NCBI GenBank assembly: GCA_964373795.1
Contig: CAYJVY010000001.1
Span: forward strand, 99,837-163,836
Reading direction: 5' to 3'
Source: an uncultured archaeon
Lineage (GTDB): Archaea > Iainarchaeota > Iainarchaeia > Iainarchaeales > DATDZZ01
Length of the DNA: 64,000 nt
In this document: positions 7,332-43,937 of the stretch, piece by piece
Position numbering within the stretch: the first letter of the stretch is position 1
Layout of the letters: each line of letters opens with the position of its first letter
Notes under the pieces: model-generated
Seen by the model: the letters and a program-made list of their open reading frames with translations, nothing else
What the model was told of the DNA's origin: nothing
The model's database searches: none
Translations under genes and position numbers: made by a program

Positions 7332-7394
7332 CCTGGTGCCTAAAATATGTTTCTTTTTTCCCTCTAAAAATTTGTTTTCCTGGTGCCTAAATTT
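7332..7394. repeat. 63-bp conserved intergenic element, copy B (see 1485..1547)
   Basis: 61/63 identical to copy A. Lies about 140 bp upstream of the HMG-CoA synthase start. Confidence 0.8.
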
Positions 7395-7537
7395 TTTTCT
7401 TTTAAAACTCTTTTTTATTTTTTTATATTTTTTTTGTAAATTTTTTTTAAAAGTTTCTGCGATCAACGATTAGAATTCTTTTTAAATCAAACTCTTGAGA
7501 ATATTAATATTGAGATTTCTATTTTTGTGATTGAATA

Positions 7538-8581: not shown

Positions 8582-8624
8582 GCCTTTTTAGCGGATTTTG
8601 TTTCACAAAATCCTAAAAGGCTTG

Positions 8625-8685
8625 CGAAAATTTGAAAAAATTTGAAAAAATTTGGAAAAATTTGAAAAGAAAATTTGAAAATTAG
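8625..8685. repeat. AT-rich tandem repeat (AAAATTTGAAA-like unit, about 5 copies) in the thiolase leader
   Basis: aaaatttgaaaaaatttgaaaaaatttggaaaaatttgaaaagaaaatttgaaaatt read directly. Confidence 0.7.
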
Positions 8686-8694
8686 AGGGAAAAT

Positions 8695-9852
8695 ATGAAA
8701 GTAGCAGTTGTTGGAACTGGTTTAACTCAATTTGGAGAGTTATGGAATAAAGGCATTAAAGATTTGCTTGCTGAAGCTCAGTTAAAAGCTTTAGAGGATG
8801 CAAAAATGTCTGGAAAAGATATTCAAATGATATATACAGGTAACATGGTTTCAGGAGAATTAACTGGTCAAGAACATTTAGGAGCAATGGCTTCAGAGAA
8901 TTTAGGATTAAATATTCCTTCAACTCGAATTGAAGGAGCATGTGCTTCAGGTAGCTTAGCAATTCGAGAAGGAGTTTTTGCAATTCTTTCAGGGCAAGCA
9001 GATATTGTAATGGTTAATGGAGTAGAAAAAATGACTGATTGTTCTGTTGAACAAGTTACAACTGCTTTAATGGGTGCAGGTGATGAAGAATGGGAGGAAT
9101 TTCAAGGAGCAACTTTTCCAGGGCTTTATGCTTTATTTGCGAGAAGAATGTTTCATGAAAAATTAATTACTCGCGAACAACTTGCAATGGTTTCAGTTAA
9201 ATCTCACAAGCATGGAACCTTAAACCCTATTGCTCAATTCAAAAAAGAAATCACTGTAGACGATGTATTAAAGTCTTCAATGGTTGCAGATCCTTTAACC
9301 TTGCTTGATTGTTCTCCAATCTCTGACGGAGCTGCTTCAATTATTCTTGCAAAACCAGAACTAGCAAAAAAATTCACTGATTCGCCTGTTTACTTAATTG
9401 GTTCAGGGCAAGCAACTGATACTCTTGCATTGCATGCAAGAGATTCTTTAACTGAAATTAAAGGCACTCGAATAGCTGCTCAGCATGCTTTCAAGCAAGC
9501 AGGAATTTCAGTAAAAGATATTTCTATTACTGAAGTGCATGACTGTTTTTCTATTGCAGAGGTTTTAGCAATGGAGGGCATTGGCTTAACAAAGCCTGGA
9601 GAAACAGGGAAAGTAATTGAAGAAGGTCAAACATTTTTTGATGCAAAAATTCCAGTGAACACTTGTGGTGGATTAAAAGCTTGTGGGCACCCAATCGGAG
9701 CTACAGGAGTAAAACAAGCAATTGAAGTGGTTCATCAATTAAGAGGCGATGCAGGAAAAAGGCAAGTAAAAAATGCTTCAATTGGCATAACACATAATGT
9801 TGGAGGTACTGGAGCAACAGTAGTAGTAAATGTGTTTTCAAATAAAAGGTGA
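8695..9852 (+). CDS. Acetoacetyl-CoA thiolase (archaeal thiolase)
   Basis: 385 aa. MKVAVVGTGLTQFGELW N-terminus, catalytic Cys region EGACASGSLA, C-terminal CGGLKACGHPIGATG. Confidence 0.85.
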   Translation: MKVAVVGTGLTQFGELWNKGIKDLLAEAQLKALEDAKMSGKDIQMIYTGNMVSGELTGQEHLGAMASENLGLNIPSTRIEGACASGSLAIREGVFAILSGQADIVMVNGVEKMTDCSVEQVTTALMGAGDEEWEEFQGATFPGLYALFARRMFHEKLITREQLAMVSVKSHKHGTLNPIAQFKKEITVDDVLKSSMVADPLTLLDCSPISDGAASIILAKPELAKKFTDSPVYLIGSGQATDTLALHARDSLTEIKGTRIAAQHAFKQAGISVKDISITEVHDCFSIAEVLAMEGIGLTKPGETGKVIEEGQTFFDAKIPVNTCGGLKACGHPIGATGVKQAIEVVHQLRGDAGKRQVKNASIGITHNVGGTGATVVVNVFSNKR

Positions 9853-31200: not shown

Positions 31201-31854
31201 ATGAATGAATTAAAGCGAATAGAGAAATACATAAAAAAATATTCTCTTGGATTAATTGAAAGAAAAACCTCTTTAAAGCACTATAATGAATTGCTTGAAA
31301 AAATTGAGGAAGGCCTTTCATTTGAGTCACTGATTTCAGATTTTTTGGAAAAAAAACCGCTTGTTAGAGTGTTTGAAATTGGTTGTGGAGAAGCTCAAGC
31401 TTTAAAGGAATTAAAAGTAATTTTTAAAAACAAAGTTTTTGTTTCAGGAATTGATTTACTTGAAACGGATTTTCAGAACTTGGATGAATTAATTATTGGC
31501 GATGTATTAGAGCAAGTTTTTCCTCAAAACTGTGACATAATTTTTTCATTTAAATCTTTGCACGAAATCGGTTCAACTAAACAACTAATTGAAAAAATTG
31601 AATCCTCTTTAACAAATGGAGGAGTAGCAATTCTTTCCATTCGCGTACAAGAATTCAAGCAAGGCGAATTAGTTTTCCTTGGAGAGTTAACTCAAGAAGA
31701 CTTGGATTTTTTGAATTCAATTCTGCAAGCAGAAAAATTTAAGTCTTGCCTAGTTTCTGGAAGCAAGGTTTTCTTAGAATATAATGGAGTTCAATTTCTT
31801 GCAGGCATTAATTTAATTTTAATGAAGCAAGTGCAGTTCAGCCGGCGAGGCTGA
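31201..31854 (+). CDS. Class I SAM-dependent methyltransferase
   Basis: Motif I VFEIGCGEAQAL. The last about 6 codons run into the GC-rich island. Confidence 0.5.
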   Translation: MNELKRIEKYIKKYSLGLIERKTSLKHYNELLEKIEEGLSFESLISDFLEKKPLVRVFEIGCGEAQALKELKVIFKNKVFVSGIDLLETDFQNLDELIIGDVLEQVFPQNCDIIFSFKSLHEIGSTKQLIEKIESSLTNGGVAILSIRVQEFKQGELVFLGELTQEDLDFLNSILQAEKFKSCLVSGSKVFLEYNGVQFLAGINLILMKQVQFSRRG

Positions 31855-32100
31855 GTGCCCACGTGGGCATCGCGCTTGCCGCGCGAGACGGCAGCTGAAG
31901 GGTCACGTGACCCCTCGTGCTCGACGCACGAGACGTCGCAGCCGGCGAGGCTGAAGCTAAAGCCAATGAAGCTGAGCCAAGTGGTGGGTGTGAGTCAACA
32001 GTCAGCGGAGCTGAGGCAGGCGGCGAACATGAAGCCAGTGAGGTTGACTCGTGTTCATTGTGTGCAACCGCAGTTGAGTGCCTTCGAATCATTTTGGTTA
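31838..32100. ncRNA. GC-rich structured-RNA candidate, possibly SRP (7S) RNA. Strand undetermined.
   Basis: About 60% GC island in a roughly 30% GC genome. Palindromic hairpins gcccACGTgggc, gggtcACGTgaccc, cgtgcTCGACgcacg. 17-nt direct repeat gcagccggcgaggctga x2. ORFs on both strands encode Ala/Ser/Pro-rich nonsense. No RNase P CR-I motif and no tRNA T-loop/stem found. Confidence 0.4.
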
Positions 32101-32199
32101 GTCGCGTTATTTTCTGAGTTAATCTCCATTAAAATGAAATAACTTCATAATCCCTTTCTTTTAGTATCAAAAGGTTTATTAACACTAAAATAAAGAATA

Positions 32200-33135
32200 A
32201 TGTTGGATTTGACTATTATGTGTTTTAAGGCAAAGATATTATTTGTTTTATTTTTAATATTGTTTTGTAATACTTTTTTTGCAGAACCTACAAAGGTAAA
32301 AGTTGGAAGCTATATTTTGAATGTTGGAAATTTTGATCCTGCTTTAGGAACTTATGATTTGTCCTTCTATGTTTGGGTCAAATGGGATAAGGACATTAAT
32401 GGCTTTACTGCTGAAAATTTTGAATTAATGAATGCAAAAAATATGTCGCTTGAACTAATTGAAGAACTTCCCGGCTACAAATTTTATAGTGGTCAGGGGA
32501 CTTTTTTCCAAAAAATTGATATGGCAAATTTTCCTTTTGATTCGCATGAAATTTCACTTGAATTAGAAGACAAATTATATGATGTAACCAAGTTAGTTTA
32601 TGTTCCTGACACTAATTGGCTTTCCTCAGAGAACCCAGATATTGCAGTACTTGGATGGAAAAATAATGGCGCAAAAATAGAGTTTGTTGAAAGATATTAT
32701 GACACTTGGAACACTACATATTCAAGGTATATTCACAAAATCAATGTCTCAAGGCCTTTAATTGATTCACTAAAAGTTTTTCTGCCAATAATTTTTCTTT
32801 CATTGTTGGGATTTTTTACATTTCTTATAAACATTCGAAAATTTTCAGAAAGACTTTCAATGTCAGTTTTTACTTTCATGGCTGCTATTGCCTATCAAAT
32901 ACAAGTGAATGTAACAATTCCTCCATTGGGGTTTTTCACGATTGCAGACAAGGCAATGATTGCAATTTATGCAGGCCTTTTGTTTGCAACGATTTACACA
33001 ATTTATATACAATGGTATGAGGAGAAAAACAAAGAGGCAGTCGCTAGTAGGACAAACAAATTCGTGATATCATTTTATTTCATTTTCCAGCTGTTAGTAT
33101 TCTTAGTAATATTTGTTTTGGATTATCTATTTTGA
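32200..33135 (+). CDS. Pentameric ligand-gated ion channel (pLGIC, GLIC/ELIC-like)
   Basis: Signal peptide, about 200-aa beta-rich extracellular domain with YVWVKWDKD (W-x-D) and Cys-loop-equivalent FPFD motif, then four TM helices. The M1 Pro (FLPIIF) and an M2 pore helix ERLSMSVFTFMAAIAYQIQVNVTIP align with GLIC M2. Confidence 0.7.
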   Translation: MLDLTIMCFKAKILFVLFLILFCNTFFAEPTKVKVGSYILNVGNFDPALGTYDLSFYVWVKWDKDINGFTAENFELMNAKNMSLELIEELPGYKFYSGQGTFFQKIDMANFPFDSHEISLELEDKLYDVTKLVYVPDTNWLSSENPDIAVLGWKNNGAKIEFVERYYDTWNTTYSRYIHKINVSRPLIDSLKVFLPIIFLSLLGFFTFLINIRKFSERLSMSVFTFMAAIAYQIQVNVTIPPLGFFTIADKAMIAIYAGLLFATIYTIYIQWYEEKNKEAVASRTNKFVISFYFIFQLLVFLVIFVLDYLF

Positions 33136-38466: not shown

Positions 38467-38557
38467 TTATTTTGTTGGAAAAACATTGGATACAGGCAGG
38501 CATTAACGACTTTGGATTGCAAAAATATTTTACTGGCGCAAACTATTCCACAAAAGA

Positions 38558-39088
38558 CTAAACAATGATTGCCTTCCACAGAAGCAACAAGATCATAAAC
38601 TTTGAGAGAAAAACCACAATGAATAATTGAGGCAAGTTTATTTTTCCAAATGACATCAATGCAAGGGCTATTTCATCAGGAACTGGCATGCCAAATGCAA
38701 AAAATCCCAGAACCGGAAATGCTACTGATAGCTTAGCGAAATTACAGTGAAGCTTTTCCATAATTTTCTCAGTGTTTTTCTCCAAAGTCTTCCTTACAAC
38801 CGAGAAAAGGAGACAATCAACACAAGCAGCAACAAGTGCAGCAACTAAAGCAAAAAAAATAGCGTTCCCACTTTGCATTAGCTCCAATATAACAGCCATT
38901 GAAAAAGGTGTTGTTATGCCGAATGTATAAAAAGCTCCAGCAACAGCAGAACCAATCAATCCAAACCCAAGAAGATATTTTGAAACAATTCTGTCAAGAC
39001 CAAATAACACTAAGACCAAGCTCACAGCAATAAATATTATTGATAGAAGAATTCTTAATTCTAGAGAAAACTTTTTTGATAAAAGCAT
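38558..39088 (-). CDS. DedA/YqaA-like small membrane protein
   Basis: 4-5 TM segments and a FGMPVPDEIALAL motif reminiscent of the SNARE-associated/DedA G-x-P-x-P-x-E pattern. The N-terminus may overlap the TnpB right end. Confidence 0.35.
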   Translation of the reverse strand: MLLSKKFSLELRILLSIIFIAVSLVLVLFGLDRIVSKYLLGFGLIGSAVAGAFYTFGITTPFSMAVILELMQSGNAIFFALVAALVAACVDCLLFSVVRKTLEKNTEKIMEKLHCNFAKLSVAFPVLGFFAFGMPVPDEIALALMSFGKINLPQLFIVVFLSKFMILLLLWKAIIV

Positions 39089-40330
39089 TAAATCGCCTAA
39101 TAATATTATTCTTAATTTAGTATGTCAATTACCCACCATTGAAATGGTTGGCTTGTCGTTAAGCTCTGCTTCAATTCTGTTTCCAGTTTCAGCTTCATCA
39201 CTTACAACATTTGGCTTATTGACTAAAGCCTGCACAAAAAGAGATTTACCCCCTCTGACAATATTTCGAGAAGCATTCAAATCAGAATGCAACTCAAAAA
39301 CACATTCTTTACATTTGAACACACTTTCATGCCTATTATTTTTATCAACATATCCGCATTTAGAACATTCCTGACTTGTATACTTAGGATTAACCAAAAC
39401 AACTGATTTACCCAATCTCTCAACTTTATATTCAATGAAACTTCTAAGTTGAGCAAAACTCCAATTACCAATCATTTTTCTAGTTTTTCTACCAGTTCTG
39501 GAATTCCTAACATTTTTCAAGTCTTCTAAAGCAAATACATTGAAAGGCAATTCAACAATTTGCTTGCTAATTAAATGATTTACATTTCGCACAAAACGGT
39601 TCTCTTTTCCACTAACTTTTTGTAGTTTTCTTTTAGCGGATTTAGTGCCTTTGCTTTGCAAATCACTTTTCAACTTCTGATATTTACCTTTAATATTTCT
39701 CAAACTTCGAGAATTAAAAAAAGAATTATTTGACAAAGTAACAATATTTTTTATACCACTATCAATGTCAAGAGTTTCAAAACCTTCAACTTTAGGAATT
39801 TTATCATTCAACATTTGTAAATGCAAAAAATAGTTTTGTCTTTTCTTTACAAGTTGGGCATTTGAGTATTTCCACTCAGAATATTTTTTGAAATAATTAG
39901 CCATTATGAAAGGAATTTTTTGTCTACCAAACAAAGTGCTTATAGAAATTATACCTTTGTCAAACATTATTGAAAGGTTTCTTTTGTCAAATCTTATTCC
40001 AGAAAACTCTTTTTTAATAGGTTTTTGTTTTAATTTCAATTTTTTGAGCATATCACTTGCTTGATCACGGGAAGTTTGAAGTAAAGAAGATTGTATGCGT
40101 GGATATTTTTTTCTAAGTAAATTGTAAGTTCTTTTATGTAGTTTGTTTTTGTTAAAAGTATGGTTTTCATATCCAAAATTAATTATTTCTTGACAAGTTT
40201 TGTTAAATGTGGACATAGTTGATTCTAATTCCTTCACAACACCAAGTTTTATTATTACAGTCCTAATATCTTTATTAATCATACAATATTATTATTACTT
40301 CTTACTTATAAAAGTTTAGACTTATTTCAA
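39000..40330 (-). mobile_element. IS200/IS605-family element remnant carrying tnpB only (IS1341-like). Boundaries approximate.
   Basis: TnpB ORF with no adjacent Y1 TnpA. Ends not delimitable by eye. Confidence 0.4.
39125..40282 (-). CDS. tnpB: TnpB (OrfB) RuvC-like RNA-guided nuclease of IS200/IS605 family
   Basis: RuvC-I LDIDSGIKNIV, RuvC-II LEDLKNV, Zn finger CSKCGYVDKNNRHESVFKCKECVFELHSDLNASRNI. 385 aa. Confidence 0.8.
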   Translation of the reverse strand: MINKDIRTVIIKLGVVKELESTMSTFNKTCQEIINFGYENHTFNKNKLHKRTYNLLRKKYPRIQSSLLQTSRDQASDMLKKLKLKQKPIKKEFSGIRFDKRNLSIMFDKGIISISTLFGRQKIPFIMANYFKKYSEWKYSNAQLVKKRQNYFLHLQMLNDKIPKVEGFETLDIDSGIKNIVTLSNNSFFNSRSLRNIKGKYQKLKSDLQSKGTKSAKRKLQKVSGKENRFVRNVNHLISKQIVELPFNVFALEDLKNVRNSRTGRKTRKMIGNWSFAQLRSFIEYKVERLGKSVVLVNPKYTSQECSKCGYVDKNNRHESVFKCKECVFELHSDLNASRNIVRGGKSLFVQALVNKPNVVSDEAETGNRIEAELNDKPTISMVGN

Positions 40331-40626
40331 AGATCCTTAAATAAGCCACATTAACTGCCTTTTTTTGCACAATCACTAACTTGAAGGAAAGCAATTTTTG
40401 CAGCAAATGCGGAAAACCACTCAACACAGAAACCTTGAAAGTATTGGAGCAAAAAGCCCAAACAAGCAACTTGCTGCAAGAAATAATTCGTTCAGAACTA
40501 GAAAAGAAAGGAATTGATTTAGCGGAAATAACTAGAGTTTTGGCGGCAAAAGCTGAATTTTCATCCAAAACGTTTAAATTTAGGTGTTACACTCATATTA
40601 ATAATTCTTTAATATTGGTGTAGCAT

Positions 40627-41127
40627 ATGGAAGGGCTTTCCAGCAAGGAAATCAAGGTTATTTCTTTTCTTGAACTCAATGAGAAGTCTTTCTTTACAAG
40701 AAAAGACATCAAACAGTTTTTCAAGAACTATTCCGAGCTTTCAGTTTATCTTCACAGGCTTAAAAGCAAAGGCAGGATAATCAAGATAACCAAAACCAAA
40801 TATTACCTAGTTCCGATAAAAGCATACGAGGGCAAATGGTCTGAAAATCCATTCATTGTAATTGACGAAATATTCAACGGCAAAAACTATTTCATTGGAG
40901 GTTATGCCGCAGCACACTATTTGGGCCTCATTGACCAAATCCCAAGAAAAATTGAAGTCTATTGCACCAACAAGCAGGGAAAAACCAAACTTTTTGACAC
41001 AGAAATTGTATTTAAGAGAATCAGACCAAAAAACCTCGTTGGCTTTGTCGAACAAAAATCCAAAAACCACTCTTTCAAAATAGCTTCTAAAGAAAAGGTA
41101 TTGCAATGGATGAAATCAAACCCATAA
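40627..41127 (+). CDS. AbiEi-like antitoxin / COG5340-type transcriptional regulator
   Basis: 166 aa, N-terminal wHTH-like region, overlaps the downstream nucleotidyltransferase gene by 22 bp. The COG5340-COG2253 pairing is typical. Confidence 0.5.
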   Translation: MEGLSSKEIKVISFLELNEKSFFTRKDIKQFFKNYSELSVYLHRLKSKGRIIKITKTKYYLVPIKAYEGKWSENPFIVIDEIFNGKNYFIGGYAAAHYLGLIDQIPRKIEVYCTNKQGKTKLFDTEIVFKRIRPKNLVGFVEQKSKNHSFKIASKEKVLQWMKSNP

Positions 41128-41888
41128 CAGAAAACCGCCTTCGATTCTTGGCAGCTGACAAAAAATTCAGTCTCTACTACTTGGAAAAAGACTATTACCT
41201 GACAGCACTGCTGTATTTCCTCAAAGATGTTCCTGACATTTGCTTTAAAGGCGGAACCGCACTAAACAAAATATTCCTCAACCACACCAGGCTGAGCGAA
41301 GACCTGGATTTTACCTGTGTCGGCCCACTGGAAAAAACAAAAAAAGCAATTCTCGAAATAGCTGAAAGCCACAAGGAATTCTTTATAAGAACACAATTTG
41401 ACAAGCAAACACCAAACTTTTTCAGGCTAAAAATCACCTACAAAACAATAACAGACTTAAGACCAGAAATCGTTGTTGATGTAAACAAGCAGGCATCTGT
41501 TTACTTGAAACCACAAAAATATAAGATCCCACACTTTTACGATGAAATCCCAGAGTTTGAGGTTTCTGCACTCGACAAGAAGGAATTGATTGCAGAAAAA
41601 GTCAGAACTCTTTTTCAAAGAAAAAAGGCAAGAGACTACTTCGACCTCTACTCCATAATCCAAGAAAAAATTCCAATAGATTTGGCTCTTGTAAAAAAGA
41701 AGCTAAAAGACATCAAAAAATTTGAAGTTAGCCAAATTTTCAAAAACGCCAACAAAGTTTATCGCTCTTGGGAACTGGAAATCAGTGCACTAACCAACAA
41801 ACCAATCGAATACAAAACCGCAATAACCACTATTTCCAAACACTTCAAATACAAGCAAACAAAACAAAGCAAGGCTGCCAAGAAGTGA
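41106..41888 (+). CDS. AbiEii/AbiGii-family nucleotidyltransferase toxin (COG2253, DUF1814)
   Basis: Pol-beta NTase motif FKGGTALNKIFLNHTRLSEDLDF (GG...S.DLD). 260 aa. C-ending codon usage visibly differs from surrounding genes. Confidence 0.65.
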   Translation: MDEIKPITENRLRFLAADKKFSLYYLEKDYYLTALLYFLKDVPDICFKGGTALNKIFLNHTRLSEDLDFTCVGPLEKTKKAILEIAESHKEFFIRTQFDKQTPNFFRLKITYKTITDLRPEIVVDVNKQASVYLKPQKYKIPHFYDEIPEFEVSALDKKELIAEKVRTLFQRKKARDYFDLYSIIQEKIPIDLALVKKKLKDIKKFEVSQIFKNANKVYRSWELEISALTNKPIEYKTAITTISKHFKYKQTKQSKAAKK

Positions 41889-42050
41889 ATTGCATGGAAA
41901 CATTTAAGGGAAAAGTCCGCAGAATCCTAGCCAACGGTGGAACCGGAATTTCCATTTTGGTTTTGTTTGACGGAAACAATAATACTTATTTTTGTGCCAG
42001 CATTTTAGGCAGGCTAGACTAACTTTTTCTGGGTTTGTCATTTGATCACT

Positions 42051-42293
42051 TTACAGTTCTTTTATTTGGTTGAGTGTTGTTTCTATGTTTTCGTTTGAAA
42101 CTAGGAAGAACGCTGTTTTTCCATTTCCAAGTTTTGCCCAGTCGTCTGCAATCTCAACTTTGTATTGGGTGTCTTTTGTGCTGGTTCGGTCGTCCCCTTT
42201 CCATTCAAGAACATAATTGTGCCTTTTTTTGTAACTGCAATAAAGTCAGGATAAAATTTGCCTCTCTTCCAGCCTGGATGTAGAAGTCTTGCT
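42051..42293 (-). pseudogene. Frameshifted remnant of an HsdR-N / PD-(D/E)xK restriction-endonuclease-like domain gene
   Basis: Minus-strand translation gives ...RGKFYPDFIAVTKKGTIMF then a -1 shift LEWKGDDRTSTKDTQYKVEIADDWAKLGNGKTAFFLVSNE...*. PD...(E)WK matches the HsdR N-terminal nuclease motif. No intact start. Confidence 0.4.
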
Positions 42294-42453
42294 TTTCCTT
42301 GTTACGAACCCAGCATTTGGCTTACTTGCATTAAATTCTTTTTTTCTCTGATAAAACGAAAATTAAAATTAAAGAGCATTAATTAAAAAATATGGCTTTT
42401 TAAATTGTTTTATGAGATAAATATTCTACTAATATAGTTGCCGGGGTGATTAA

Positions 42454-42600
42454 TTGCCTTTAGTTGAAGCAAGTTCCAAGTCATCAAGAGTTGAACGAAG
42501 ATGCATGAGTTGTGGCAGGGCTTTAAATCCAGATGCAAGAGACCTTTATTCAAGAAGATTTTGCTCTAATGGATGTAAAGAAAACTATTTAAGAAAATAA
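42454..42600 (+). CDS. 48-aa zinc-ribbon mini-protein (C-x2-C...C-x3-C), TTG start
   Basis: ...RRCMSCGRALNPDARDLYSRRFCSNGCKENYLRK. GGGGTGA Shine-Dalgarno-like sequence just upstream. Below the ORF-track cut-off. Confidence 0.3.
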   Translation: MPLVEASSKSSRVERRCMSCGRALNPDARDLYSRRFCSNGCKENYLRK

Positions 42601-42621
42601 AACTTTTTTAATAGTGTTCAA

Positions 42622-43407
42622 ATGGATTTTATTACTCAAAAAGTAAATCAATTGTATGAAAAATATCCTTATCCTTCTCTTTCTTTTTTTAATCCAAGCC
42701 TAGACATATCTATTCATGCAAACAAGATTGCAAAGCCTTTGAATAAAACCATTTATGATCTTTCTCCTAGGAACTCTGTTTTAGATGTTGGATGTGGAAC
42801 AGGAGAAATCACTTGTTCTCTGGCTTTTGGTGGTGCGAAAACAGTTGGAGTTGATTTGTCAAAAAATTCGTTGAAGAGAGCAAGGCTTTTAGCAAAAAAA
42901 CTCAAACTTTCAACCATTAAATTTTTGCATAAAAATTTATTTGATTTAAATTTAAATCAAGAATTTGATTTTGTTTTTTCTTTAGGAGTATTACATCATA
43001 CTTCTAATCCAAAAAAGGGTTTTGAAAAACTTGTCCAACACACTAAATCAAATGGATTTATTACTATTGGATTGTATAATGTTTTTGGAAGATTTAAGCA
43101 CAGGCTTAGAAGAAAACTTATTTCTGTTCTTGCAGGAAAAGACATTGAGAAAAGAATTGCTTTAAGCAAGAAATTGTTTCATAAAGGATTTGCTTCAGAG
43201 CAAGATGAAATTTATTTAGCTGATAAATTTGCTCATCCAAATGAAAGGTATTCTTCTTTGGAAGAAGTTTTTTCCTGGTTTAAAGAATTTAACATTAAAT
43301 TTGTTGACTGTAATCCAAAAATTTCTTCAAATCCTTTTTTAACTCAAATCAATTGGCTTTTAAATGAAAAAACGTTTTTCATTGTTTCAGGGCAAAAACT
43401 TGAATAA
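42622..43407 (+). CDS. Class I SAM-dependent methyltransferase
   Basis: Motif I VLDVGCGTGEIT, motif II FDFVFS. Confidence 0.65.
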   Translation: MDFITQKVNQLYEKYPYPSLSFFNPSLDISIHANKIAKPLNKTIYDLSPRNSVLDVGCGTGEITCSLAFGGAKTVGVDLSKNSLKRARLLAKKLKLSTIKFLHKNLFDLNLNQEFDFVFSLGVLHHTSNPKKGFEKLVQHTKSNGFITIGLYNVFGRFKHRLRRKLISVLAGKDIEKRIALSKKLFHKGFASEQDEIYLADKFAHPNERYSSLEEVFSWFKEFNIKFVDCNPKISSNPFLTQINWLLNEKTFFIVSGQKLE

Positions 43408-43439: not shown

Positions 43440-43937
43440 GTGATTGAATTGAGTGAAGTTAAAAAAATAATTGAAGCAGCATTATTTATGAGTTCAAAAC
43501 CAATTCCTTTCATGGAATTACTTAAGTTATCGGAAAGCGCTTTAGAGTTAAGAAAATCAATTACTGAGTTAACCAATTTTTATAATTCATCTGATTCTGC
43601 TTTAGAAATAACTGAAACTCCTGCAGGATTTCAAATGAGGGTTAGATTAAATTATGCTGATAAAGTAAACCATTTAGCTGCTGCTTCAAGTGAATTTTCT
43701 TCATCTGTAATGAAAACCCTTGCATTAATTGCTTACAAGCAACCATTAATTCAAGCAGAATTAATTAAGTATCGTTCAAACAAAGCATACGAAGACGTAA
43801 AAGTTTTAGAGTCATTAGGATTTATTTCTCGTGAACCAAACCAGAAAACATTTATTTTGCGTACAACAAAAAAATTCGTTGAATACTTCGGCCCAAACCC
43901 AGTGAAACTAGTAAAACACGAAGCATTAAAAGAATAA
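43440..43937 (+). CDS. scpB: Segregation and condensation protein B
   Basis: IIEAALFMSSKPIPFMELLKL and a second wHTH (ELIKYRSNKAYEDVKVLESLGFI). 165 aa. Confidence 0.6.
   Translation: MIELSEVKKIIEAALFMSSKPIPFMELLKLSESALELRKSITELTNFYNSSDSALEITETPAGFQMRVRLNYADKVNHLAAASSEFSSSVMKTLALIAYKQPLIQAELIKYRSNKAYEDVKVLESLGFISREPNQKTFILRTTKKFVEYFGPNPVKLVKHEALKE

Follow-up and report, generated by a model that had tools for sequence, protein, structure and literature searches.

Do defence-related genes that lie side by side in an archaeal genome belong to one system, or did they come together from separate sources? The question is raised by positions 38467–42620 of a 64,000-nt stretch of DNA (hereafter the window; GC content 0.307) from an uncultured archaeon of the Iainarchaeota (assembly GCA_964373795.1, contig CAYJVY010000001.1). 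The original prediction, made by a model from the sequence, placed here a single islet of five elements: a DedA-like membrane protein, a TnpB without TnpA, an AbiE-type toxin–antitoxin pair, a nuclease pseudogene and a small zinc-ribbon gene. We find that an accessory, defence-flavoured patch does lie between nth and a methyltransferase gene, and that it is real and composite, spanning about 3.2 kb (39.1–42.3 kb), which is less than was first proposed. The five elements do not form one unit: the tnpB gene uses host-like codons, the AbiE homology has sharp boundaries (40375–41938) and the zinc-ribbon open reading frame (ORF) goes with the core genes downstream. Having established gene identities, motifs, composition, the distribution over several genomic contexts and the selection acting on the genes, we read the interval as a mosaic of three pieces with separate histories (tnpB, the AbiE module and the scar of a Res-type gene) rather than as one system, with a probability of roughly 0.8.

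The patch comprises the following features.

39125–40282, minus strand: tnpB, solitary, IS200/IS605-type, 385 aa (NF040570, PF07282, PF01385)
40283–40374, minus strand: 5′ flank of tnpB (GC 0.25; homology breakpoint)
40375–41938, plus strand: AbiE block, consisting of decayed upstream DNA, promoter, abiEi, abiEii and 50 nt of 3′ flank (homology to contig L109)
40381–40623, plus strand: 80-aa ORF from the ORF list, rejected as a gene
40573–40626, plus strand: candidate abiE promoter/operator, a conserved non-coding stretch
40627–41127, plus strand: abiEi, 166 aa, COG5340-type winged helix–turn–helix (wHTH) antitoxin/regulator (PADLOC AbiEi)
41106–41888, plus strand: abiEii, 260 aa, DUF1814 polymerase-beta-type nucleotidyltransferase toxin (PF08843, PADLOC)
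42051–42318, minus strand: 3′ end of a ResIII-helicase/PD-(D/E)xK pseudogene (phmmer, tblastn)

An AbiE module that recurs in unrelated contexts

The two genes at the centre of the patch had been predicted to form a COG5340/COG2253 (AbiEi/AbiEii) pair, and the pair is genuine. AbiEii passes the hidden Markov model check with PF08843 (108.5 bits, E = 6.8e-31; cut-off 22.5 bits) and matches the PADLOC AbiEii model at E = 1.2e-39, and AbiEi matches the PADLOC AbiEi model over residues 4–158 (E = 2e-23). A member of the AbiEi 90% cluster carries the Joint Genome Institute (JGI) name ‘predicted transcriptional regulator of viral defense system’, which is the COG5340 name. The abiEi gene comes first and overlaps abiEii by 22 nt.

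AbiEii carries a GGTAL...SEDLD motif. Among 25 aligned homologues, the most distant of them 43% identical, G49, G50, T51 and A52 are invariant, as are R62, S64, E65 and D66 and, more distally, E164, K165, R172, R176, D177 and D180; D68 is kept in at least 90% of them. Mutation of motifs I–IV of Streptococcus agalactiae AbiEii (G49/G50; R63, D67 and D69; K173 and R180; D192) abolishes toxicity (PMC3985639), and the corresponding residues in the window protein are G49 and G50, R62, D66 and D68, K165 and R172, and D177/D180. All the nucleotidyltransferase motifs are thus intact.

Codon use sets the pair apart from its surroundings. Against a baseline of 59 non-overlapping window ORFs, in which the fraction of codons ending in C (C3) is 0.100 ± 0.044 and the fraction ending in G or C (GC3) is 0.218 ± 0.078, abiEi has a C3 of 0.287 (z 4.3) and abiEii one of 0.303 (z 4.6), and GC3 for the pair is 0.425 (z 2.6). 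The two genes have the lowest synonymous-codon likelihood among the credible protein-coding genes of the window. The AbiE block as a whole has a GC content of 0.366, and 41–42 kb is the highest-GC bin of the 64 one-kb bins. The preference for C-ending codons that the original prediction had noticed (0.29–0.30 for abiE) is thus confirmed by calculation.

The same cassette is found at 78–92% nucleotide identity in four other contexts that are unrelated to one another. On contig L109 it is 91.7% identical over 1568 bp (window 40375–41938) and has SRP54, prefoldin, L18Ae and eIF6 genes as neighbours. On L104, L105 and L106 it is 78% identical (window 40565–41907) and lies among metabolic genes of GCA_964577555.1. 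The L108 copy (79%, window 40556–41867) stands within a defence island of type I restriction–modification, Schlafen/AlbA and SduA-like genes, and a fourth copy, 80.5% identical, is on the short contig L107. Homology begins about 60 nt upstream of abiEi (250 nt in L109) and ends 20–50 nt past the abiEii stop codon, so that with L109, L105 and L108 it ends at the cassette edges and excludes both tnpB and the nuclease remnant. The only other protein that L105 shares with the window is 33% identical, against 81–85% for AbiE. In composition the cassette suits the 40%-GC background of L108, whereas it stands out in L105 and L109 as it does in the window.

Because the cassette recurs in unrelated contexts, we take the deviant codon use of the abiE genes to reflect horizontal acquisition, as the original prediction had suggested. 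The genes are also maintained, since the ratio of nonsynonymous to synonymous polymorphism (pN/pS) is 0.07–0.17 for abiEi against three homologues and 0.12 for abiEii, with all comparisons between 0.07 and 0.17. On these sequence comparisons, the AbiE module is a recent horizontal acquisition under purifying selection, which speaks for function, and it is probably functional. AbiE systems are known from defence islands and mobile DNA (PMC3985639) and are enriched in DPANN archaea (PMC12988326).

Two further observations concern L105 (GCA_964577555.1, CAZNZM010000003.1, 1–20777). The 33%-identical pair consists of a 311-aa membrane protein (window 32200–33135; L105 8531–9394), whose L105 gene lies directly beside the AbiE cassette; this adjacency is probably coincidental. 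In addition, C3 on L105 depends strongly on the strand: when abiE and the pair of small ORFs that follow it directly are set aside, plus-strand genes have values of 0.17–0.27, and minus-strand genes have values of 0.03–0.13, nearly half of them 0.03–0.06.

A candidate operator ahead of abiEi

The region upstream of abiEi holds a TATA box, TTTAAATTT (40573–40581), followed by an inverted repeat, GTGTTACA (40584–40591) and TGTAGCAT (40619–40626), with 6 of 8 positions matching. Both lie in a non-coding promoter stretch that is conserved in the window, L105, L108 and L109. The repeat is perfect over 8 bp in L105 and L108 (TTGTTACA-N27-TGTAACAA) and again has 6/8 matches in L109. By analogy with S. 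agalactiae, where AbiEi exerts negative autoregulation through promoter inverted repeats (PMC3985639, PMC7319586), the repeat is a candidate AbiEi operator.

The 80-aa ORF that overlaps this region was rejected as a gene, its last 60 nt or so being the abiE promoter. It has no counterpart in L105 or L108 and was missing from the protein collection searched, and the homologous DNA in L109 carries a frame-breaking indel and has a pN/pS of 0.61. Upstream of the closest AbiE homologue, L109 itself has a 68-aa ORF (66–380; MKEDKRIRQVAFIDESTRNAFDKLEG...), the 3′ part of which is homologous, out of frame, to the region of the 80-aa ORF in the window; it is possibly a decayed small gene that formerly stood ahead of abiEi.

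A solitary tnpB with host-like codons

TnpB proteins are RNA-guided DNA endonucleases that cut targets flanked by a transposon-associated motif (TAM), with a guide transcribed from the 3′ end of their own gene. The window protein matches the NCBIfam guided_TnpB model NF040570 with 179.9 bits (cut-off 100) over profile positions 8–388 of 389, and also PF07282 (Cas12f1-like_TNB) and PF01385 (OrfB_IS605). Its RuvC-II motif (ALEDL), zinc finger (CSKC...CKEC) and RuvC-III motif (SDLNASRNI) align to solved Cas12f/TnpB chains in the PDB, and RuvC-I (DIDSG), which lies outside the aligned stretches, was read from the sequence. The protein is full length, has an intact RuvC D-E-D triad and zinc finger, and would act as an RNA-guided endonuclease with a predicted guide RNA (ωRNA).

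As the original prediction had it, TnpA is absent: no TnpA-like ORF or remnant (Y1/HUH or serine recombinase) is present in 38.4–42.7 kb. Nor does the window contain a second tnpB copy, a terminal repeat or an identifiable insertion sequence (IS) end, and no array of clustered regularly interspaced short palindromic repeats (CRISPR) was found. With neither TnpA nor recognisable ends, tnpB is not part of a complete IS200/IS605 element. Its codons are host-like (GC3 0.22; codon z about 0), and TnpB is a singleton in its own 90% cluster, with no close relatives in the databases searched. Because the stop codon lies 36 nt from the ATG of the neighbouring gene, mem176, the ωRNA scaffold would lie almost wholly within the ORF, or else the right end of the element has been lost. 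On the other side, the 5′ flank carries a TATA-like TTTTATAA, which precedes the ATG by about 30 nt, and ends where the AbiE block starts, at the L109 homology breakpoint (about 40372–40375); this flank is possibly the left IS end.

The scar of a helicase–nuclease gene

Downstream of the AbiE block, on the minus strand, lies a nuclease remnant, for which we used a repaired 83-aa translation as the query. A word-indexed search with it gave no matches. Using phmmer against 1.84 billion representatives, we obtained 144 matches (best E = 2.6e-23), all at the extreme C terminus of the matched proteins, which include many of 760–780 aa with PF04851 ResIII and DEAD domains. By tblastn the remnant is spread over three frames: WVRNKEKQDFYIQ at 42312–42274, inside a match at 42318–42208; GWKRGKFYPDFIAVTKKG, starting at 42274; and KKRHNYVLEWKGDD...IKEL-stop at 42230–42051. 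The frameshifts fall at about 42275 and in a T7 run at 42224–42230. Because two independent Logan contigs (L084 and L085) carry the identical frameshifted sequence, they are not an assembly error of a single data set. The GC content of the remnant is 0.392, and no sequence similar to the helicase part is seen upstream of 42318.

The remnant is a 5′-truncated pseudogene, comprising the last 88 or so codons of a gene of about 765 aa that encodes a ResIII/DEAD helicase with a C-terminal PD-(D/E)xK domain. It marks the place where a defence gene stood earlier. The original prediction was right in seeing a frameshifted PD-(D/E)xK remnant on the minus strand, and its HsdR-N label falls: there is no HSDR_N (PF04313) match, and the relatives bear the domain C-terminally on ResIII/DEAD helicases.

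Core genes on both flanks

The patch is bounded on the left by the core genes nth and mem176, and on the right by the zinc-ribbon ORF, a class-I methyltransferase gene and ScpB.

38558–39088, minus strand: mem176, 176-aa multi-pass membrane protein, lineage-conserved flank gene
42443–42600, plus strand: initiation context and 48-aa zinc-ribbon ORF (ORF 42454–42600; ORF list, Shine–Dalgarno-like motif)
42622–43407: class-I methyltransferase, downstream of the zinc-ribbon ORF
43440–43937: ScpB, downstream of the methyltransferase

The best partial match of Nth is a Micrarchaeota metagenome-assembled genome (MAG). Five short Logan contigs, found by exact-protein look-ups, are 99.9–100% identical to the window.

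The mem176 protein has 15 homologues at 47–57% identity, with one at 91%, all from metagenomic archaea; three of the 15 are from MAGs of Candidatus Micrarchaeota, Anstonellaceae and Micrarchaeia. On the strength of these homologues and of the Nth match, the source is taken here to be a DPANN, Micrarchaeota-like archaeon. The homologues occur in 17 loci with varied neighbours, never beside TnpB or AbiE, and in one of these loci a 38%-identical copy of the window methyltransferase lies 1.5 kb away. Their alignment has 30 invariant columns, concentrated in GAFYTFGxTTP and FGxPxPDE. The gene is therefore a core flank gene, conserved in Micrarchaeota and outside the accessory patch, and not the islet member that it had been taken for.

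The DedA-like label given to it is also not borne out. DedA/VTT (PF09335) matched only 2 of the 16 family members (best E 0.19), and hhalign against a genuine DedA gave a probability of 1.2%, aligning only GMPVPDEIAL with IPLPSELIM. There is no Pfam or NCBIfam match, and an AlphaFold2 model (predicted local distance difference test score, pLDDT, 84) has no fold match in the PDB; a reading of low probability is that mem176 stands for a membrane-protein family not described before, without relatives in Pfam or the PDB. A run of eight A residues in the gene (38852–38859) is seven long in Logan contig L002 (ERR4904391), which splits the ORF and leaves an 80-aa product; either an error in sequencing or phase variation may lie behind the difference.

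On the other flank, the 48-aa ORF with CxxC...CxxxC and an upstream GGGGTGA is present as described, with the pattern C17-x2-C20-x16-C37-x3-C41 including RFCSNGC. GGGGTGA (42443–42449) is followed by the 4 nt TTAA and then by the TTG start codon. The recurrence of a ‘GTGATTAA + start’ pattern at other genes of the window favours a real gene, and the ORF ends 21 nt upstream of the methyltransferase gene. All family matches are below threshold (DUF2116, 1.8e-3, 18.7 bits versus 26.8; YacG, 1.6e-3, 18.1 versus 79; zf-FLZ, 3.2e-3; and L24e). The exact sequence was missing from the protein collection searched, and the fetched loci yielded no homologue. Its position and initiation context suggest that it is probably a small core gene heading the methyltransferase–ScpB genes.

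Weighing one arrival against several

The best-surviving competitor, which we consider unlikely, is that the patch from 39.1 to 42.3 kb, with tnpB, abiE and the Res remnant, is what decay has left of one mobile element, whether plasmid, virus or defence island, that arrived once. The pieces adjoin one another; GC is raised (0.34–0.39) all the way from the AbiE block through the spacer to the Res remnant (40375–42318), between AT-rich spacers (0.25 and 0.24); and the AbiE genes of L108 sit in just such a larger defence island. However, the TnpB codons are host-like whereas AbiE is a 4-sigma outlier, and the sequence shared with L109, L105 and L108 reaches no further than the cassette, leaving out tnpB and the remnant. 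The patch also has no integrase, att-like repeat or transfer RNA (tRNA) gene (ARAGORN found no tRNA gene across the 64-kb window), and viral contigs yielded no relative closer than 27–29% identity.

It is very unlikely that all five elements make up one cooperating defence islet in which mem176 and the zinc-ribbon protein serve as effector or accessory parts. Physical clustering and a weak match of mem176 to the PADLOC ‘4TM effector’ (E = 0.0065) speak for it, but mem176 is present at 17 other loci that lack AbiE and TnpB, none of the AbiE-bearing loci has the zinc-ribbon ORF, the nuclease gene is a pseudogene and AbiE moves as a two-gene unit; the independent distribution of mem176 and the zinc-ribbon ORF refutes this reading. 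That the locus is ancestral, with the abiE codon use a product of strand or expression bias, is hardly credible: the strand-dependent C3 of L105 does show that strand effects exist in the group, but window genes on both strands have a C3 of about 0.1, the cassette is a compositional outlier in L105 and L109 too, and it is found in four unrelated neighbourhoods at an identity far above that of the sole other comparable protein.

Several observations weigh against the mosaic reading or the roles given to its parts. AbiEi falls below the cut-offs of Pfam AbiEi_4 (22.1 bits versus 25) and NCBIfam TAA_AbiEi (20.5 bits versus 150), its single-sequence structure model has a pLDDT of 39, and the inverted repeat of the window copy is imperfect. 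For the ωRNA, hairpins are predicted with a fold z-score of only −1.63, Rfam has no match, TnpB relatives for a covariation analysis are lacking and just 36 nt separate the stop codon from the next gene. No empty site that would show the insertion directly was found, there being no close relative with a long contig, and the biochemical activities, autoregulation and defence phenotype of the patch proteins are ones that we infer from characterized systems.

A predicted mechanism for the AbiE pair

Pyrimidine transfer onto tRNAs has been shown in published work on AbiEii (bioRxiv 10.64898/2026.01.19.700257), as for the MenT toxins (PMC7450476, PMC10435456). Because of this published activity and the motif match to S. 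agalactiae AbiEii, the best-supported model for the window pair is a tRNA-modifying nucleotidyltransferase toxin with an antitoxin that would repress the promoter and trigger an inactivating phosphorylation. By analogy with S. agalactiae AbiE and Mycobacterium tuberculosis MenAT, the DUF1814 nucleotidyltransferase AbiEii would add pyrimidines to tRNA 3′ ends and so stop translation, and the wHTH domain of AbiEi would repress the operon at the promoter inverted repeat. In S. agalactiae, T65 of AbiEii is auto-phosphorylated upon AbiEi binding (bioRxiv 10.64898/2026.01.19.700257); S64 of the window protein (R62-L-S64-E-D66) is its positional match (R63-x-T65-x-D67). AbiEi may thus neutralise AbiEii by inducing auto-phosphorylation on the invariant Ser64, two residues before the catalytic Asp66. 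Growth arrest, as abortive infection or addiction, would then follow once AbiEii is freed by phage infection or by loss of the locus.

Significance

The elements of the patch are of known kinds and the patch is unremarkable among them, its importance hardly extending beyond annotation; the enrichment of AbiE in DPANN archaea has already been published (PMC12988326). It adds one well-delimited case to the published pattern in which compact AbiE-type modules are preferred to CRISPR and restriction–modification by DPANN archaea with reduced genomes (PMC12988326), and its exact cassette boundaries and four independent insertion contexts could be used for studying how such modules move. Three labels (DedA-like protein, HsdR-N pseudogene and 80-aa ORF) are corrected before they propagate.

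The AbiE cassette has sharp homology edges, and no mobility gene, attachment site or viral carrier was seen with it. A bolder and quite improbable reading is that AbiE circulates in DPANN archaea as a bare unit of 1.35–1.56 kb (promoter and two genes) and that the gap between mem176 and the zinc-ribbon ORF is a recurrent landing site, which may have received first the Res gene that left its scar and then AbiE, with the TnpB element arriving before or after. If true, this would imply an unrecognised transfer route, for example uptake at host–symbiont contact or recombination aided by the adjacent TnpB element.

Other features of the window

At gathering thresholds, Rfam detects no RNA family anywhere in the 64-kb window. 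The strongest compositional outlier (z 5.8) is a stretch of about 290 nt on the plus strand (31839–32142) with a GC content of 0.55, against 30% for the genome. Two exact copies of a 16-nt direct repeat, CAGCCGGCGAGGCTGA (31839–31854 and 31939–31954; 0.02 expected by chance), enclose three GC-rich, perfect palindromes: GCCCACGTGGGC, GGGTCACGTGACCC and CTCGTGC-TCGA-GCACGAG. Although the stretch can be read as an ORF of 95 aa, it resembles a structured RNA, or a small palindromic element that was inserted, more than a gene; its folding energy is −120.5 kcal/mol (z −2.07), and Rfam has no match to it.

Elsewhere, a 73-nt direct repeat (1484–1556 and 7332–7404; 93% identical) surrounds about 5.8 kb of genes, each copy holding CCTGGTGCCTAAA twice. 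A tandem repeat of the AAAATTTGAAA type, with about six units (8617–8700), lies immediately upstream of the ORF at 8695–9852 and is possibly a regulatory array. The first 2000 nt of the window form a second compositional anomaly, with very low GC (0.22–0.26) and a strongly negative AT skew.

Comparison with known systems

With DedA/VTT proteins, mem176 shares a small multi-pass architecture and two Gly/Pro-rich helix–break–helix motifs, and its GMPVPDE resembles their IPLPSE signature. However, the motif is near the C terminus in mem176 and N-terminal in DedA, and the mem176 family is confined, as far as seen, to Micrarchaeota-like archaea.

The nuclease remnant aligns at 44–61% identity with the last 75 or so residues of type III restriction Res-like helicase–nucleases (NCBIfam BPTD_3080 family), with which it shares the (Y)PDF...E-x-K nuclease motif. 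Unlike these genes, it retains only about 12% of the length, has two frameshifts, lacks the helicase part and has no Mod methyltransferase next to it; the neighbouring methyltransferase is of a generic class-I type that a relative also conserves.

TnpB resembles ISDra2 TnpB and the IS200/IS605 family in its full-length model match, RuvC triad, zinc finger and size of about 385 aa. It differs in having no tnpA, no identifiable IS ends, no second copy in the window and a 3′ flank of only 36 nt, and since no CRISPR array is present the protein is not a Cas12f.

The closest parallels of the AbiE pair are the AbiE systems of S. agalactiae and Lactococcus and the MenA/MenT (MenAT) systems of M. tuberculosis. 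The window pair differs from them in belonging to an archaeal (DPANN) clade, in its short AbiEi (166 aa) under the Pfam and NCBIfam thresholds and in an operator repeat that is a short 8-bp pair, degenerate in the window copy; no PDB chain, MenT included, is detectable by sequence. Shared features are the bicistronic order with the antitoxin gene first, the pairing of a COG5340-type wHTH antitoxin with a DUF1814/PF08843 nucleotidyltransferase toxin, the hGG-x15-DxD spacing, the K-x6-R motif III and D-containing motif IV, a Ser/Thr phospho-acceptor position two residues ahead of the first catalytic Asp, an inverted repeat in the candidate promoter, and an occurrence on shuffled, horizontally moving DNA.

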